Below are positions 21,695 to 25,236 of a DNA stretch of 64,000 bases, in pieces. Position numbers and translations under genes: made by a program. The stretch is taken from the NCBI GenBank assembly GCA_009758405.1, contig WSBC01000008.1:16705-80704 (forward strand), read 5' to 3'. Numbering within the stretch: the stretch's first letter is position 1; the number at the start of each line of letters is the position of its first letter. The stretch comes from Methanobacteriota archaeon. Its GTDB lineage: Archaea; Thermoplasmatota; Thermoplasmata; Thermoplasmatales; ARK-15. The notes beneath the pieces are model-generated. The model saw only the letters and a list, made by a program, of their open reading frames with translations. It was not told the DNA's origin and did no database searches.

Positions 21695-22752
21695 GTTTGG
21701 TTGGGCGGTACATCCTTTCACTTCATACTCTTGAAAAATTTATAAATGATTCATTACATTTGATGAATCATTCAGACCATCTGAGTGGATTTTACTATAA
21801 CAAATATTTACTGAAAGCAACATGTTTGAATACTTACGTTTAAACTGTAAATAACAGGGCGGATTCATTGCATCTAGCAATAGAAAGGACAGGGATCAAG
21901 GATATAATGGATTCAATGTTCTCAAGGATAATGGCAATCACAAGGCCATTCAACTTCTCATATAAAAAGATAATGCTTGCATTTGATTACACTTACTGGG
22001 ATTTTTATGGAAAATCTAGCAATCCCTGGATAAGGGGATGGACAGGAGAGGATGGAGTAAATGGTAAATTCTATTTTCTTACGGCGAGCATGGTTAACGA
22101 TGATTTCAGATTGCCTTTGATATCCATACCATCAACGGTATTAGAGAAAATGTCAATAGAAATAACATCTTTATTGTAAGTTCTTAAGAGAAATTTCAAT
22201 AACATAGATCTTGTTTTATTCGACAGGTGGTTCTATACAAAAGAGTTGATGCTTTCACTGAACAGTATGGTTAACTATCTCATATTTGTGAGGAAGAATT
22301 CAGAAATAAGAAGAGAACTGGAATCGATGGAGATGGGTGAGAAAAAGATCAAACTTCTTGAATTCACATATTACAGGGATGGAAAGAAAATAAGTGATGC
22401 AACATATATAGCATTTCTAAGGAAGATATTTGACCACAGGACAGAGGAATACTATGATTGGGCATTTGCAACAAACTTAAAGGAGGTGAATCTTGATGAA
22501 ATAGTAGGGAAATACAAGATAAGATGGAGGATAGAGAATATATTTAGGGTGCAGGATGAAGCAACAATAAAGAGCAAATCCCTGAACATAAATGTAAGGT
22601 ATTTTCTGTTTGTGTATGAGCAGGTTCTGGAGGCAATATGGTATCTGTATTTCTCAAAGGAGATGAGCTTTAAGAGATTTATAATAGAGCTAAGTGAAAC
22701 CTGTTCAAAGATGGTGGATAACGAGGAGAGAAAAAGGAAAATTAGATCATAA
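21691..22752 (+). pseudogene. DDE transposase pseudogene (ISH3/IS4-like)
   Basis: One reading frame from ATG 21691 broken by in-frame TAA at 21841 and 22177; LAFDYT, LFDR(W)FY and YKIRWRIEN motifs. Confidence 0.85.
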
Positions 22753-23154
22753 ACAGTTATTGAGTTTATGATTTACGGGCCCATTTTCCTTTTTCCCTCA
22801 CCAGAAATTAATAGAAAAGTGACTCTTAAATCTTTAGTTAATTCGGAGATACTGTTATTAATAAAAAAAGTTCTTAAGAAATTTTTTCTAAGAAAAATAA
22901 TTTTTATTCATTGAGGAAAATGATAAATTCAATGGGGACCATCCTTGGATTCAATGTATGTAAGGATGATATAATGAGGTGCTTTGATATGAGGTATCCT
23001 CGACCCTTACATATAAGTGTGAACAATGTTATTAAATGTCTAAAAACAAAATAGATGATATAAATGGATAAATTACAAATTATTAAAAAATATTATATTT
23101 AATTACAATCTTTATTATCAAACTTGCATTTTTCTCTATAACCAGGTGAATAAA

Positions 23155-23247
23155 ATGAGTCCTGCAGATCTATTGTTCATGCTTGTTTCCGCAGCACTTG
23201 TAATGATAATGACTCCCGGATTAGCTCTTTTTTATGGGGGTCTTGTA
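23155..23247 (+). pseudogene. amtB: Ammonium transporter (AmtB) 5' remnant, interrupted by IS110
   Basis: GGTGA SD then MSPADLLFMLVSAALVMIMTPGLALFYGGLV; removing the IS restores GGLVRK (continues at 24612); the rest of the gene is missing. Confidence 0.85.
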
Positions 23248-23269
23248 GGTGTCATGAAAAAGGCTTTTT

Positions 23270-23456
23270 GACCACGATAACATGACGATGTTATTGTGAG
23301 AGTCGGAAAAGTGGTCGCCTTTGGTATTGACCTATAAAGGTCGTTTCCAAGGTTGACCACTTTTACGTCTCGACACTATACCTTGAAACAAAGGTGAATA
23401 GAAGATTGTCGAGATTTCCGACCCATAGGGCTCTCACGAACCACATAGAGGTGGTC
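23270..23456 (+). ncRNA. Putative bridge/seek RNA of the IS110 element
   Basis: Nested stems GACCAC/GTGGTC, GTGAGAG/CTCTCAC, GTCGGAAA/TTTCCGAC, AAAAGTGGTC/GACCACTTTT and TCTCGACA/TGTCGAGA. One arm holds ATAGAAGATTGT (23398-409), identical to the element's right end (24599-610). Confidence 0.7.
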
Positions 23457-23458
23457 TA

Positions 23459-24602
23459 ATGATAATAGGATTGGATGTATATAAGGATTTGGTATACGTG
23501 ACAAGAATGGAAAACGATGGGAAAATAACAGAACAATACGAAATGAAGAACAGTGAAGAATCATGGAACAAATTTGTAGGGTAAATACATATTAGAAATG
23601 CCTGAGATAGCACTTGAAGCATCCACATCTGGAAAGCATGTTGCAAGGATTCTAAGTTATGCAGGTTTTTCAGTCCACATTGCAGATCCAAAGAAACTAG
23701 CATTGATATTCAAATCATCTAAAAAGAATGACAGATCGGATTCAGAAAATCTTGCAAAATTACTTAGATTGAATGAATTTCCAGAGGCATATTTGCCATC
23801 AAGGGAATATGAAGAAATGAGGACACTGACAAGGCACAGAAAATACCTTGGTGAGGAGGTTGTTAGAATTAAAAACAAAGTGCACAGCATTCTATCATTG
23901 AATGGTATAAAGATAAAAGCCACGGACATATTTGGGAAAAAAGGCCTTAGTGAATTATCAAAATCTATAGAGAGGCTTAGTTACTCTGAAAAGATTGTTA
24001 TAAATGATATGCTAAAAAGAATAATTGACATAAAGGAAAGATCAGAAAAGATTGAAAATGAAATGGCAAAAATAGGCAAAGATAGAGAGGACGTAAAAAG
24101 GCTCATGACAATACCTGGGATAAATATATACATCGCAACTGGGATAATAGGTGAAATAGGGGATATTAATAGATTCAGGAATAAAGAGAGTCTAGCATCA
24201 TATGCGGGTCTAGTACCAAGGCAAGATCAATCTGGAAAAAATGATAGGAAAGGGCACATAACAAAGGAAGGGCCATCAATGTTAAGATATCTTTTGGTAC
24301 TAGCTGCACATACTTTGATAAAATACTCTAAGAAGATGAAGAATAAGTATCTCAGTTCAGTAAAGAGGATTGAGAAGAATAGGGCAATAGTAGCAATAGC
24401 AAGGATTCTCGCTGAAATGATATTCACTATGCTAAAAAAGAATGTTGATTTCGAGGATGAGATAATTCCATTAACTGAAAAGAAGGTAAAGAAAATGATT
24501 GAAAGAGCAAATTCGGGATCTGGAGAAATAAACATTCAGGAAAACATAAAATTAATATCATCTAAAGGATTTAGGTCATTGTCAACTAAGCCTTTTTCAT
24601 AG
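23459..24602 (+). pseudogene. IS110 DEDD recombinase/transposase, +1 frameshift near 23579-23581
   Basis: SD GAGGTGG, then MIIGLDVYKD... stops at 23582. Deleting one G joins it to the 334-aa ORF (ALEAS, KKNDRSD, TIPGI, SYAGLVP..QSG, GHITKEG, AIVAIAR). Confidence 0.88.
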
Positions 24603-24897
24603 AAGATTGTAAGAAAACAAAGAAAGTAATATCAACAAAAGATGAGACAGGTATGAAAATTCTTAAATATTTAAATTTGGAGAGGTTTCAATAGCGCCCC
24701 ATTACGATTATTAAGAAAAATCAGTAAAATAAAGGTTAATTTATCAATTTTTAATTTAAATCATGTAAACTTACGTCTTCATATTCTTTATTTTCTTTAA
24801 AATATACATCTCCTAATAACAACGTTTCCCAAGACATACTTATCCCTCCTATTTTTCAATTCCATAAGAATTCTTTCTCTGATATTCCATTACACCT

Positions 24898-25236
24898 TTA
24901 ACGCTTCTTTAGCTTATCCCCATCAACTTCAAAAATTTCATTAAATCGATTTCCTAACTCTTTCACATCAAATTTGGCCTTCCTCTTATAATCAATCAGA
25001 TAAATTACTATTACACGATTTTTTCTTTTCACATTCTCTGACCTGATTAATGCAACTACCACCTTTCCGTCTTCTAAATGCTTATCAATATAGATCTTAT
25101 TGTTAATTGCATACCCTTCAGACCAGCCAGGCCATACCTCTATTTTCTCGAGATTAGATAAATTCTTTATTAAAAGATTATGAAGACTGGTCCTGTTCAA
25201 TTTTTCCAATTTTTTTCATTTCTTTTAAATCCATCA
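24898..25236 (-). pseudogene. Orphan gene, A-run frameshift near the 5' end
   Basis: AGGAGGAG SD and ATG at 25236 are out of frame with the 103-aa ORF across an A tract near 25210-25217. Confidence 0.5.

Follow-up and report, generated by a model that had tools for sequence, protein, structure and literature searches.

To our knowledge, no RNA guides other than bridge and seek RNAs determine both recombination partners. The elements that carry them have been divided into two groups that differ jointly in RNA position, end repeats and guide order, according to PMC11208160 and PMC11187229. PMC11187229 also names exceptions: an upstream NCR in ISMtsp17, which is related to IS1111; long NCRs on either side in ISHvo10 and ISAcp5; and sTIRs in two IS of a deep-branching IS110 group. 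We examined a locus in a 64,000-nt stretch of a Thermoplasmatales contig (the window), in which positions 23249-24603 very probably (roughly 0.85) comprise a single copy of an IS110-family insertion sequence of the Thermoplasmatales, with a left end encoding a bridge (seek) RNA that guides a DEDD/serine recombinase. The features of the locus are as follows.

23146-23248, + strand: 5' remnant of amt, the left target (weak match to Pfam PF00909); its last two bases, AG, are the left core
23249-23253, + strand: left terminal extension GTGTC, the right donor half, predicted to be read by the 5' guide of arm 2
23254-23266, + strand: left sub-terminal inverted repeat ATGAAAAAGGCTT, an exact inverted repeat in 19/19 elements
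23276-23295, + strand: 5' hairpin (helix 1), all 8 pairs compensatory in 74 distinct sequences
23296-23437, + strand: body of the bridge RNA, helices P1 and P2 enclosing arms 1 and 2 (covariation)
23309-23362, + strand: arm 1, predicted target-binding loop (guide/flank co-variation)
23369-23413, + strand: arm 2, predicted donor-binding loop (pairing with the left end, identity with the right end)
23459-23584, + strand: recombinase, first 41 codons, with the first catalytic Asp in GLDVYK (ORF, motif alignment)
23598-24602, + strand: recombinase, remaining 334 codons, with E, D..D and the GL.P....SG serine (Pfam, NCBIfam, motif alignment)
24588-24600, + strand: right sub-terminal inverted repeat AAGCCTTTTTCAT, overlapping the last codons of the recombinase gene
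24601-24605, + strand: right terminal extension AGA (24601-03) and right AG core (24604-05), from the G102 copies described below and metagenome contigs
24606-24740, + strand: right flank, a second, unrelated site that is not amt (metagenome contig, homolog search)

The protein agreed with the initial annotation of the locus as an IS110 element. The recombinase matched Pfam families PF02371 (Transposase_20, C-terminal; 2.1e-25) and PF01548 (DEDD_Tnp_IS110, N-terminal; 1.5e-13) and scored 214.8 bits against NCBIfam model NF033542, 'IS110 family RNA-guided transposase' (cut-off 140). Among PDB entries, its C-terminal domain matched the ISCro4 (4e-9) and IS621 (3e-7) transposases. We aligned 12 relatives, 10 named references and the two ORF pieces of the window (24 rows). 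The motifs G.D..K, E, K.D..D and GL.P....SG, with residue roles as given in PMC11208158, were conserved in 90% or more of these rows, and all of them lay within the two window pieces.

Element ends and the state of the window copy

Both ends of the element were fixed by a related genome (G102) that carries three identical copies with unlike flanks. In each of these the left junction read exactly AG followed by ATGTCATG and the right junction CATAGA followed by AG, and AG was all that the junctions had in common, i.e. a short core at both junctions with no duplication beyond it, as expected of the IS110 family. In the window this core corresponds to the dinucleotide AG at 23247-48 and 24604-05. 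By a count of our element table, AG stood directly before the left end in 55 of 68 elements, and metagenome contigs diverged from the window copy at 23246/47/49 on the left and at 24604/06/07 on the right. The sub-terminal inverted repeat of the window copy was 13 bp long and exact (23254-66 with 24588-24600); all 19 elements with both ends displayed an exact repeat of 9-14 bp, the sequence of which co-varied between subfamilies. Amongst these 19 the repeat was offset from the left end by 5 nt (6 nt in two elements) and from the right end by 3 nt, and in 17 of them adding the 2-nt core to the 5 nt on the left, with the 3 nt on the right, gives the 7/3 extensions of IS1111-like elements. The initial annotation had described about 210 nt of 5' non-coding DNA, and 210 nt (23249-23458) do precede the ATG at 23459; the stop codon lies 3 nt ahead of the right core, a layout shared with the narrow IS110 group.

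The window copy is a frameshifted relic and a chimera of two insertions, with junctions from two different sites. One extra G in the GGG run at 23579-81 shifts the frame and stops the recombinase after 41 codons. On the left, the element cuts the amt (ammonium transporter) gene after about 35 codons. An intact amt ortholog, 76% identical, is present in the congener G002, and one metagenome contig continues amt past 23249; the rest of the gene was not found in the element's own genome, which is 88.8% complete. The right flank (24606-24740) was considered as the continuation of amt and rejected, given that no homolog was found in the 15 family genomes searched and that its alignment to G002 amt was unconvincing. 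In another metagenome contig the same right flank follows a left sequence unlike that of the window copy, with the join at 24604. The mismatched junctions are most simply explained by recombination between two copies, deleting the DNA in between. The close copies for the right end of the window's subfamily were themselves truncated (L003) or degenerate (L016). As biology the window copy is ordinary, a broken relic that marks the deletion of an ammonium transporter gene.

An active copy would require that the extra G is an assembly error and that the mismatched flanks reflect an off-target ('half-match') insertion. Every other sample has GG where the window has GGG, with metagenome contigs showing one base fewer at 23579 in all four runs examined, and the RNA of the window copy scored 150.9 bits with our RNA model (R1, below), as good as intact copies. 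Half-match insertions have been reported for IS621 in a preprint (10.64898/2026.08.31.748434), and the right flank of the window copy repeats 5 nt of the arm 2 guide past the core, with a chance of about 0.002 by base composition. However, each flank adjoins a different partner in other samples, which a single insertion is unable to produce, and the missing remainder of amt likewise argues against activity, which we consider unlikely.

Left-end RNA and its two loops

The left end folded at -81.4 kcal/mol compared with -50.8 +/- 4.1 for shuffled sequences (z = -7.5), and none of 200 shuffles folded as well. The 5' hairpin ATAACAT/ATGTTAT of the initial annotation was found at 23277-83 and 23288-94, and the two long arms with internal loops that it had described lie inside two closing helices, P1 (23296-302 with 23431-37) and P2 (23303-08 with 23416-21). 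A covariance model of homologues, proposed earlier as a check, revealed strong compensatory covariation. In alignment A3, which was fitted to the model and so favours structure, 88.9% of cells were paired, as against 34-44% in controls with slid partners, and both-sided changes occurred at 38 of 47 pairs; the independent MAFFT alignment A2 gave the same picture (88.2% of cells paired, both-sided changes at 19/47 pairs). The 5' non-coding end is structured, and the structure is real. A scan of 22900-24900 against Rfam 15 at E <= 10 returned five matches, all at chance level and far below gathering scores, indicating that the RNA is covered by no curated family.

Model R1 matched 57 of 151 Thermoplasmatales genomes and 3 of 151 in a sample of the phylum, two of the latter inside the order. 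In all 81 matches followed by a recombinase gene, the RNA was situated upstream of it. Three complete genomes, G102, G048 and G033, each carry between 3 and 7 matches. At E <= 1 with filters off, the model gave no match at ten named-relative loci (ISAtu7, ISShdy1, IS5075, IS4321, IS1618, IS5708, ISBth13, ISKpn2, ISEc45 and a Halanaeroarchaeum element), indicating that its reach is confined to its own clade. An archaeal, probably thermo- or acidophilic host had been surmised from the sequence, and both the Thermoplasmatales genome and the sources of DNA near-identical to the window copy, mainly hot-spring and vent metagenomes, agree with this. A description of the family was not found in the accessible literature on archaeal IS110 bridge RNAs and Thermoplasma; Supplementary Table 5 of PMC11208160, Supplementary Fig. 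2 of PMC11187229 and the cluster lists of 10.64898/2026.10.21.760802, all closed supplements, may already contain it.

Co-variation with the element's own ends points to arm 2 as the donor loop of the bridge/seek RNA. Its 5' guide GACAC (23372-76) pairs with the left end GTGTC (23249-53), a complementarity already noticed in the initial annotation, and across 51 elements 231 of 255 such positions were pairable, spread over several co-varying classes. The 3' guide AATAGAAG (23397-404) is the right end plus core, and the corresponding 7-mer was identical to right end and core in 15/19 elements, with one A/G position changing jointly. The proposal of a bispecific guide RNA in the left end, with arm 2 reading the donor ends, is thereby supported, and the donor-site covariation suggested as its check is present. 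The 5' donor guide shares positions with the basal helix of this arm and leaves the core uncovered. The copy of the right end reported in arm 2, ATAGAAGATTGT at 23398-23409, is indeed identical to 24599-24610, but as a 12-letter 'donor copy' it holds for the seven letters that are element end and core and fails for the other five, which are flank. A handshake between arm 2 and the right flank, comparing 3 nt past the core with the first 3 flank nt, gave no signal (22/57 vs about 18 expected).

Arm 1, judged by its co-variation with insertion flanks, is probably the target loop, with a 5' side (23317-27) complementary to core and right flank and a 3' side (23344-52) equal to the left flank, AG and one handshake base. 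On average the 3' side matched 3.26 of the 7 left-flank positions (1.87 expected), a value reached in none of 10000 permutations (n = 50), with identity at positions -1 and -2 of 72% vs about 32%. For the 5' side, at least 6 of 8 positions fitted the right flank in 11/19 elements compared with 2.7% of mismatched pairings, and 49 of 50 elements start with the base that follows AG in arm 1 (the handshake). The guide/target covariation proposed as a check was thus found on both sides of the insertion. Natural insertions often fit the target loop only partly (mean 3.3/7 on the left, 5.3/8 on the right). The window copy's loop fits its own flanks poorly (3/7 left, 3/8 right); its fit to the original amt right flank of the metagenome contig was 5/8 by eye. 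Both the window copy and L018 have AT instead of CT at the end of the arm 1 5' guide, which makes pairing with the G of the core impossible. Two sites with one mismatch to the predicted target of the window's arm 1 occur in its own genome, inside unrelated ORFs, and both are unoccupied.

These matches support a guide order of the IS1111 type, opposite to that of IS621. The initial annotation had read the resemblance of GGTATTG in arm 1 to GGTCTTG in the flank as the target guide, implying the IS621-like order. The letters do agree as described, but the 5' match lacked family-wide support (mean 2.93 vs 2.78 expected, p = 0.13, n = 54), the second test of the IS621-like order was null too (p = 0.57, n = 19), and under an IS1111-type order the GGTATTG/GGTCTTG match is not the target guide.

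Contigs assembled from hot-spring RNA libraries contained the RNA part at greater depth than the gene. In two runs, 23327-23441 displayed word depths of 21-26 and 81-89 compared with 7.5 and 8.7 for the gene, although such contigs may hold DNA, and strand and true ends are not readable from them; in one contig a sequencing adapter adjoins 23305. Together the contigs point to an RNA of about 23305-23441. The RNA contigs extend into the gene too, the structure lies directly upstream of the ATG, ending about 20 nt short of it, and a Shine-Dalgarno-like GGAGGTG follows. All of this would suit a cis element, either a leader governing how well the transposase mRNA is translated or how stable it is, or a platform to which the recombinase binds at the DNA level. 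A leader, however, leaves unexplained why loop letters track both the insertion flanks and the element's own ends. Among copies more than 90% identical, the loops are the most variable part (with loose ends at 23320 and 23327), whereas the helices are kept by compensatory change. We therefore regard a purely cis-acting structure as quite improbable, and the data leave room for a dual role in cis and as a guide.

The remaining alternative, the initial model of a 5-nt core or duplication TTGTA combined with IS621-like RNA polarity and an arm 1 whose 5' side reads the left target in sense, is in our reading already refuted and retains next to no probability: TTGTA does stand on either side of the element (23243-47 and 24607-11), and the 12-nt identity of arm 2 with 24599-24610 and the 6/7 agreement of GGTATTG with GGTCTTG are as described, but the repeat is private to the window copy (at least 4/5 letters in that register in 1 of 19 two-junction members), the G102 copies share just AG, the metagenome contigs part at 23246-49 and 24604-07 instead of 24611, and the polarity tests were null. 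The circle junction predicted on this model (...AAGA-TTGTA-GGTGTC...) falls with its core, and the proposed empty site GGGGGTC-TTGTA-AGAAAAC is wrong, as amt continues directly after 23249 in both the metagenome contig and the G002 ortholog.

Proposed mechanism and relation to known groups

Taking the guide RNA reading as the preferred one, the RNA, with its two arms inside two closing helices that follow a 5' hairpin, would direct recombination at the AG core (CT on the other strand, as in IS621), whereby the circularised element (right end - AG - left end) would be joined to a target in which AG stands between left flank and right flank. In arm 1, the 5' side is the complement of the coding strand over AG and about 8 nt of right flank, and the 3' side repeats 4-5 nt of left flank, followed by AG and by the handshake base, which is the element's first base. 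In arm 2, the 5' side would pair with the first 5 nt of the left end, and the 3' side repeats the final 5-6 nt of the right end and then AG. By analogy with the work on IS621 and seekRNAs, the recombinase would presumably bind and require the RNA, with circle formation and strand exchange proceeding as in those systems.

A widespread archaeal family that mixes the characters of the two published groups bears on which of these are mechanistically coupled, and on whether long repeats serve end recognition independently of the RNA. In practical terms, it offers dozens of natural guide variants and insertion sites from thermoacidophiles, candidates for robust programmable recombinases. Tentatively, and at somewhat less than even odds, we propose that the Thermoplasmatales elements form a third architectural class, with an upstream RNA, a non-IS1111 transposase, and donor ends and guide polarity of the IS1111 type. 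Should this be so, RNA position (upstream or downstream of the gene) would be separable from the way the recombination site is oriented with respect to the RNA, the family would show by which route the two known groups diverged, and it would be a source of naturally diversified, heat- and acid-adapted programmable recombinases.

As IS621 and ISCro4 are described in PMC11208160 and PMC11208158, the Thermoplasmatales elements share with them the DEDD and serine recombinase, an RNA encoded by the left end ahead of the gene, two internal loops of which the first is for the target and the second for the donor, and a 2-nt CT/AG core. In RNA terms the resemblance extends to a 5' side of N7-8 followed by CT and a 3' side of N4-6 followed by AG and a handshake base. 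On the same descriptions, the guides are inverted relative to IS621, the Thermoplasmatales 5' side being complementary to the coding strand whereas that of IS621 pairs with the bottom strand, and the core read along the gene is AG instead of CT. In the narrow IS110 group (IS621, ISEc21) the bottom-strand match, which has the sense of the left flank, lies 5' of the top-strand match in the RNA, an order that both of our tests failed to recover (p = 0.13 and p = 0.57). Sub-terminal repeats are absent or 2-3 bp long in that group, compared with 13 bp in the window and 9-14 bp in all 19 Thermoplasmatales elements. The Thermoplasmatales RNA further differs from the described IS621 RNA in its multi-branch fold through two closing helices and in a 5' donor guide that overlaps a helix and skips the core, and alignment of the proteins was limited to the C-terminal domain.

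The IS1111/seekRNA elements (ISEc11, ISKpn4, ISPa11; IS4321/IS5075), as portrayed in PMC11187229, resemble the Thermoplasmatales elements in other respects, including sub-terminal inverted repeats (theirs of 11-13 bp), terminal extensions that reach 7 bp on the left, once the core is assigned to that end, and 3 bp on the right, and the order of the guides in the RNA. In contrast, the IS1111 RNA lies downstream of the gene and the Thermoplasmatales RNA upstream; in IS5075, IS4321 and ISKpn2 the repeats were located 60 nt ahead of the ATG and 221-252 nt past the stop. The proteins also differ, in size (about 375-385 aa in Thermoplasmatales vs 330-350 aa in IS1111) and in descent, as a clade anchored on IS5075 and IS4321, and including ISKpn2, ISShdy1, IS1618 and IS5708, excluded all 12 Thermoplasmatales rows (100/100; branch length 2.8) in a 22-row tree that was built without IS110, IS621, IS1111, ISHvo10 and ISMtsp17 sequences and carries long-branch warnings for ISEc45, ISBth13 and ISAtu7. 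The combination of sub-terminal repeats with an upstream RNA, rightly called atypical at the outset, thus departs from the IS110/IS1111 dichotomy as drawn in PMC11208160 and PMC11187229. ISMtsp17, ISHvo10, ISAcp5 and the other exceptions, as described in PMC11187229, indicate as the Thermoplasmatales family does that NCR position and sub-terminal repeats are not strictly coupled, and the family may be one of these exceptions or a relative of them.

Fold, family and occurrence of the left-end RNA

The 210 nt from the left end of the element to the ATG fold at -81.4 kcal/mol, against -50.8 +/- 4.1 for shuffled sequences (z = -7.5), and none of 200 shuffles folded equally well. The sequence bore out the features described in the initial annotation: the hairpin, two looped arms, 12 identical nucleotides at 23398-23409 and 24599-24610, GACAC complementary to GTGTC, and a sub-terminal inverted repeat. 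An Rfam search with this region returned no matching family. Twelve homologous left ends of relatives were aligned (column identity 65-70 %), and a structure of seven helices was drawn, comprising the 5' hairpin, two closing helices (P1 and P2) that enclose both arms, and a basal and an apical helix in each arm. In the MAFFT alignment, 88.2 % of cells were paired, with both-side changes in 19 of 47 pairs, whilst slid partners reached 35-46 %. The covariance model R1, made from this alignment and structure, found about 140 places in the order, spread over 57 of the 151 genomes sampled; in a phylum-wide sample it matched 3 of 151 genomes, two within the order and the third weakly. When 81 R1 matches (74 distinct) were aligned to the model, a procedure biased towards the structure in a way that the MAFFT count is not, 88.9 % of cells were paired (slid, 34-44 %) and 38 of 47 pairs displayed compensatory change. 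The helices were therefore upheld by a covariance model of homologous elements, as the initial annotation had proposed to check.

Near-identical DNA was identified in 14 DNA runs, each with 25-57 % of the sampled words; most were labelled as hot-spring or hydrothermal-vent metagenomes, and the rest as sediment or hypersaline lake. Two hot-spring RNA libraries yielded contigs whose word depth over 23327-23441 is 21-26 in one library and 81-89 in the other, compared to 7.5 and 8.7 over the recombinase gene in the same libraries. Both contigs end at 23441, and a full sequencing adapter adjoins 23305 in one. Such contigs are blind to strand and true ends, and such libraries can contain DNA; with that qualification, they fit an abundant RNA of about 137 nt containing both arms. 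This putative RNA is comparable to the short seekRNA form reported to be more abundant than its precursor (PMC11187229).

Element ends and guide assignment

In the complete genome of a relative (G102), three copies share an identical RNA; their flanks differ on both sides, and the sequence common to them runs exactly from AG|ATGTCATG to CATAGA|AG. By hand count, 55 of the 68 elements parsed had AG directly before their left end; of the 76 distinct rows, contig ends truncated 2, and in 6 the left end was unrecognisable. Independent evidence came from metagenome contigs with other flanks, whose match to the element begins at 23246 and 23247 on the left side and ends at 24606 and 24607 on the right. 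One contig carried the left flank to 23249 and then continued into sequence like amt, the ammonium transporter gene at the left flank, as does the intact ortholog of a congener (G002). These observations place the core at the dinucleotide AG (23247-48 and 24604-05) and the element proper at 23249-24603. TTGTA, previously taken as the core and repeat, does not share the register of the conserved termini, and a repeat of this kind was seen in 1 of 19 elements with two junctions, that of the window alone. In all 19 elements with both ends, an exact inverted repeat of 9-14 bp lies 3 nt from the right end and 5 nt from the left end (6 nt in two elements); the repeat sequence co-varied among subfamilies. 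Adding the 2-nt core to the left side gives these offsets a 7/3 geometry.

Loop letters of each element were compared with its own flanks, with mismatched element/flank pairings as the null. The 3' side of arm 1, read in the same sense as the left flank, agreed at a mean of 3.26 of 7 positions versus 1.87 expected, and 0 of 10000 permutations were as high (n=50); identity was 72 % at -1 and -2, 52 % at -3 and 46 % at -4, where about 30 % was expected. This side goes on with AG and one further base, which is the element's first base in 49 of 50 cases (45 A/A and 4 G/G, in two subfamilies) and behaves like the handshake position reported for IS621 (PMC11208158). The 5' side of arm 1 corresponds to AG and the right flank read in reverse complement: taking the best of three registers for observed and null alike, at least 6/8 matched in 11 of 19 elements, whilst the rate among 328 mismatched pairings was 2.7 % and none of 10000 permutations reached the observed level. 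The clear cases were the loci L044 (10/11) and L042 (9/11 right, 5/6 left). In arm 2, the 5' side was pairable with the first five left-end bases at 231 of 255 positions across 51 elements, in the co-varying classes GACAT/ATGTC, GATTT/AAATC, GACAC/GTGTC, GACTT/AAGTC and GACCT/AGGTC, whilst the 3' side exactly repeated the right end and core in 15 of 19, an A/G position shifting jointly in both.

Since loop letters follow the flanks and ends of their own elements, the designation of arm 1 as target loop and arm 2 as donor loop was borne out, and the suggested check for guide/target covariation gave a positive result on both sides of the target. The IS621-like guide order implied by the same annotation was not recovered, this assignment being null across the family (p = 0.13, n=54; p = 0.57, n=19). 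In both loops, the predicted guide complementary to the coding strand stands first.

The RNA-library contigs begin to mismatch the window at 23320 and 23327, giving different letters in the arm 1 5' guide (23317-23327), and guide-variant metagenome contigs were otherwise at least 90 % alike. A changed arm 1 guide in such close copies looks like the pattern that natural reprogramming of the target guide would be expected to leave.

Two further features of the loops were observed. In the window (23326-23328) and at locus L018, the arm 1 5' guide ends in AT-T where the family has CT-T, which leaves it unable to pair with the core's G; at the handshake position, too, both copies have G. At loci L041 (1298-1457, - strand) and L043 (1713-1872, + strand), a second, divergent R1-type RNA (44.9 bits) and a strong one face each other head-to-head, about 45 nt apart. 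The left flank of the divergent element is the reverse complement of its neighbour's left end, suggesting that one subfamily may insert at the ends of another.

State of the window copy

Pieces of the recombinase gene in the window
23459-23584, + strand, 41-codon ORF, recombinase piece 1
23598-24602, + strand, 334-codon ORF, recombinase piece 2

The element belongs to the IS110 family. The two ORFs are pieces of one recombinase, separated by a one-base shift in a GGG run (23579-81). The 334-codon piece matched Pfam Transposase_20 (2.1e-25), DEDD_Tnp_IS110 (1.5e-13, without the first 51 profile positions) and NCBIfam NF033542 'IS110 family RNA-guided transposase' (214.8 bits, cut-off 140), and between them the two pieces contain every catalytic motif (D, E, D..D and GL.P....SG). 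As the recombinase of relatives is a single uninterrupted frame, and contigs covering the site lack one base at 23579 in 4 of 4 public runs compared with the region, the frameshift is private to the window copy or else an assembly error.

The host genome (G000) is a Thermoplasmatales MAG of 1.3 Mb in 34 contigs, 88.8 % complete, with one copy of the element. Two more IS110-family transposase remnants, about 40 % identical, are present (G000:C2:4051-4638 and G000:C1:79342-79599). Neither has an R1 match, the window element being the sole R1 place in the genome, and they were therefore assigned to a different subfamily. Some 500 nt upstream of the element, a 168-codon ORF at 22246-22752 (+ strand) matched DDE_Tnp_1 weakly (E = 4.8e-4, 20.4 bits, below the cut-off of 23) and is probably what remains of another insertion sequence, unrelated to the first. 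The region thus resembles a patch rich in IS.

The target predicted from the window's target loop is TTTCCA-AG-ACCAAAGG, which the flanks of this copy suit poorly.

Fit of flanks to the window's target guide
Left flank (...GGTCTTGT-AG): 3/7
Present right flank: 3/8
Original amt right flank, from another sample: 5/8, by eye

The amt gene (window 23146-23248) is cut off after about 35-38 codons, and a search of its own genome (88.8 % complete) did not recover the rest. The right flank (24606 onward) had no homolog among 15 related genomes, and in another sample the sequence that precedes it, up to the join at 24604, is a different one. Together, these data indicate that the DNA right of the element comes from another site than amt, through IS-mediated deletion or rearrangement. 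The simplest account would be recombination between a copy in amt and another copy at a second site, with deletion of the intervening DNA, leaving a single chimeric copy that then gained an extra G, or whose G was mis-called by the assembly. Flank bases 24606-10 prolong the identity with arm 2 (chance by base composition about 0.002), an extension with no family-wide counterpart (22 of 57 matches versus about 18 expected); by analogy, half-match pairing as reported for IS621 (10.64898/2026.08.31.748434) is one possible origin. Elsewhere in G000, two sites with one mismatch to the predicted arm 1 target (G000:C1:134421-134436 and G000:C20:67483-67498, both - strand) are unoccupied and lie inside unrelated ORFs.

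Relationship to known IS110 and IS1111 elements

Archaeal IS110 recombinases are known, with 662 counted in 2,835 archaeal genomes in a preprint (10.1101/2024.06.21.599552); IS110 transposases are listed for Cuniculiplasmataceae (PMC5155288), and large bridge-RNA surveys cover archaeal genomes (PMC11208160; 10.64898/2026.10.21.760802). Neither a full-text literature search nor the survey texts read gave a description of the Thermoplasmatales RNA family or its combination of features. The seekRNA paper names as exceptions ISMtsp17, ISHvo10 and ISAcp5, together with two IS with repeats from a deep IS110 branch (PMC11187229). The interest of the family lies chiefly in the evolution and mechanics of bridge recombination and in its value as a source of thermoacidophile enzymes.

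In a maximum-likelihood tree of 22 rows (four omitted: two G102 duplicates and two mis-started ORFs), 12 Thermoplasmatales proteins fell outside the IS5075/IS4321/ISKpn2/ISShdy1/IS1618/IS5708 clade (100/100, branch length 2.8), loosely with a Halanaeroarchaeum element, ISAtu7, ISBth13 and ISEc45. Because the tree is without IS110, IS621, IS1111, ISHvo10 and ISMtsp17 and three reference branches are long, placement of the transposase outside the IS5075/IS4321 clade is provisional.

The IS1111 family is defined by sub-terminal repeats of 11-13 bp, extensions of 7 bp left and 3 bp right, and a downstream non-coding region, and its guide order is reported as the reverse of that in IS621 (PMC11187229). 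Loci of IS5075, IS4321 and ISKpn2 displayed the classical layout, with the repeat located 60 nt upstream of the ATG and 221-252 nt downstream of the stop. The Thermoplasmatales elements resemble IS1111 in their sub-terminal repeats and 7/3 geometry, but their RNA lies upstream of the gene. At an E. coli plasmid locus (L135), ISEc45 has an exact inverted repeat of 11 bp, located 298 nt upstream of the ATG and within the gene's last 42 nt; this would be the same layout of upstream non-coding region and sub-terminal repeats, a chance match being possible. Compared to IS621, the loops are isomorphic in RNA terms (5' side N-CT, 3' side N-AG plus handshake base), and what sets the two apart is how the recombination site is oriented with respect to RNA and gene. 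The Thermoplasmatales family is a variant within bridge-recombination systems rather than a new principle.
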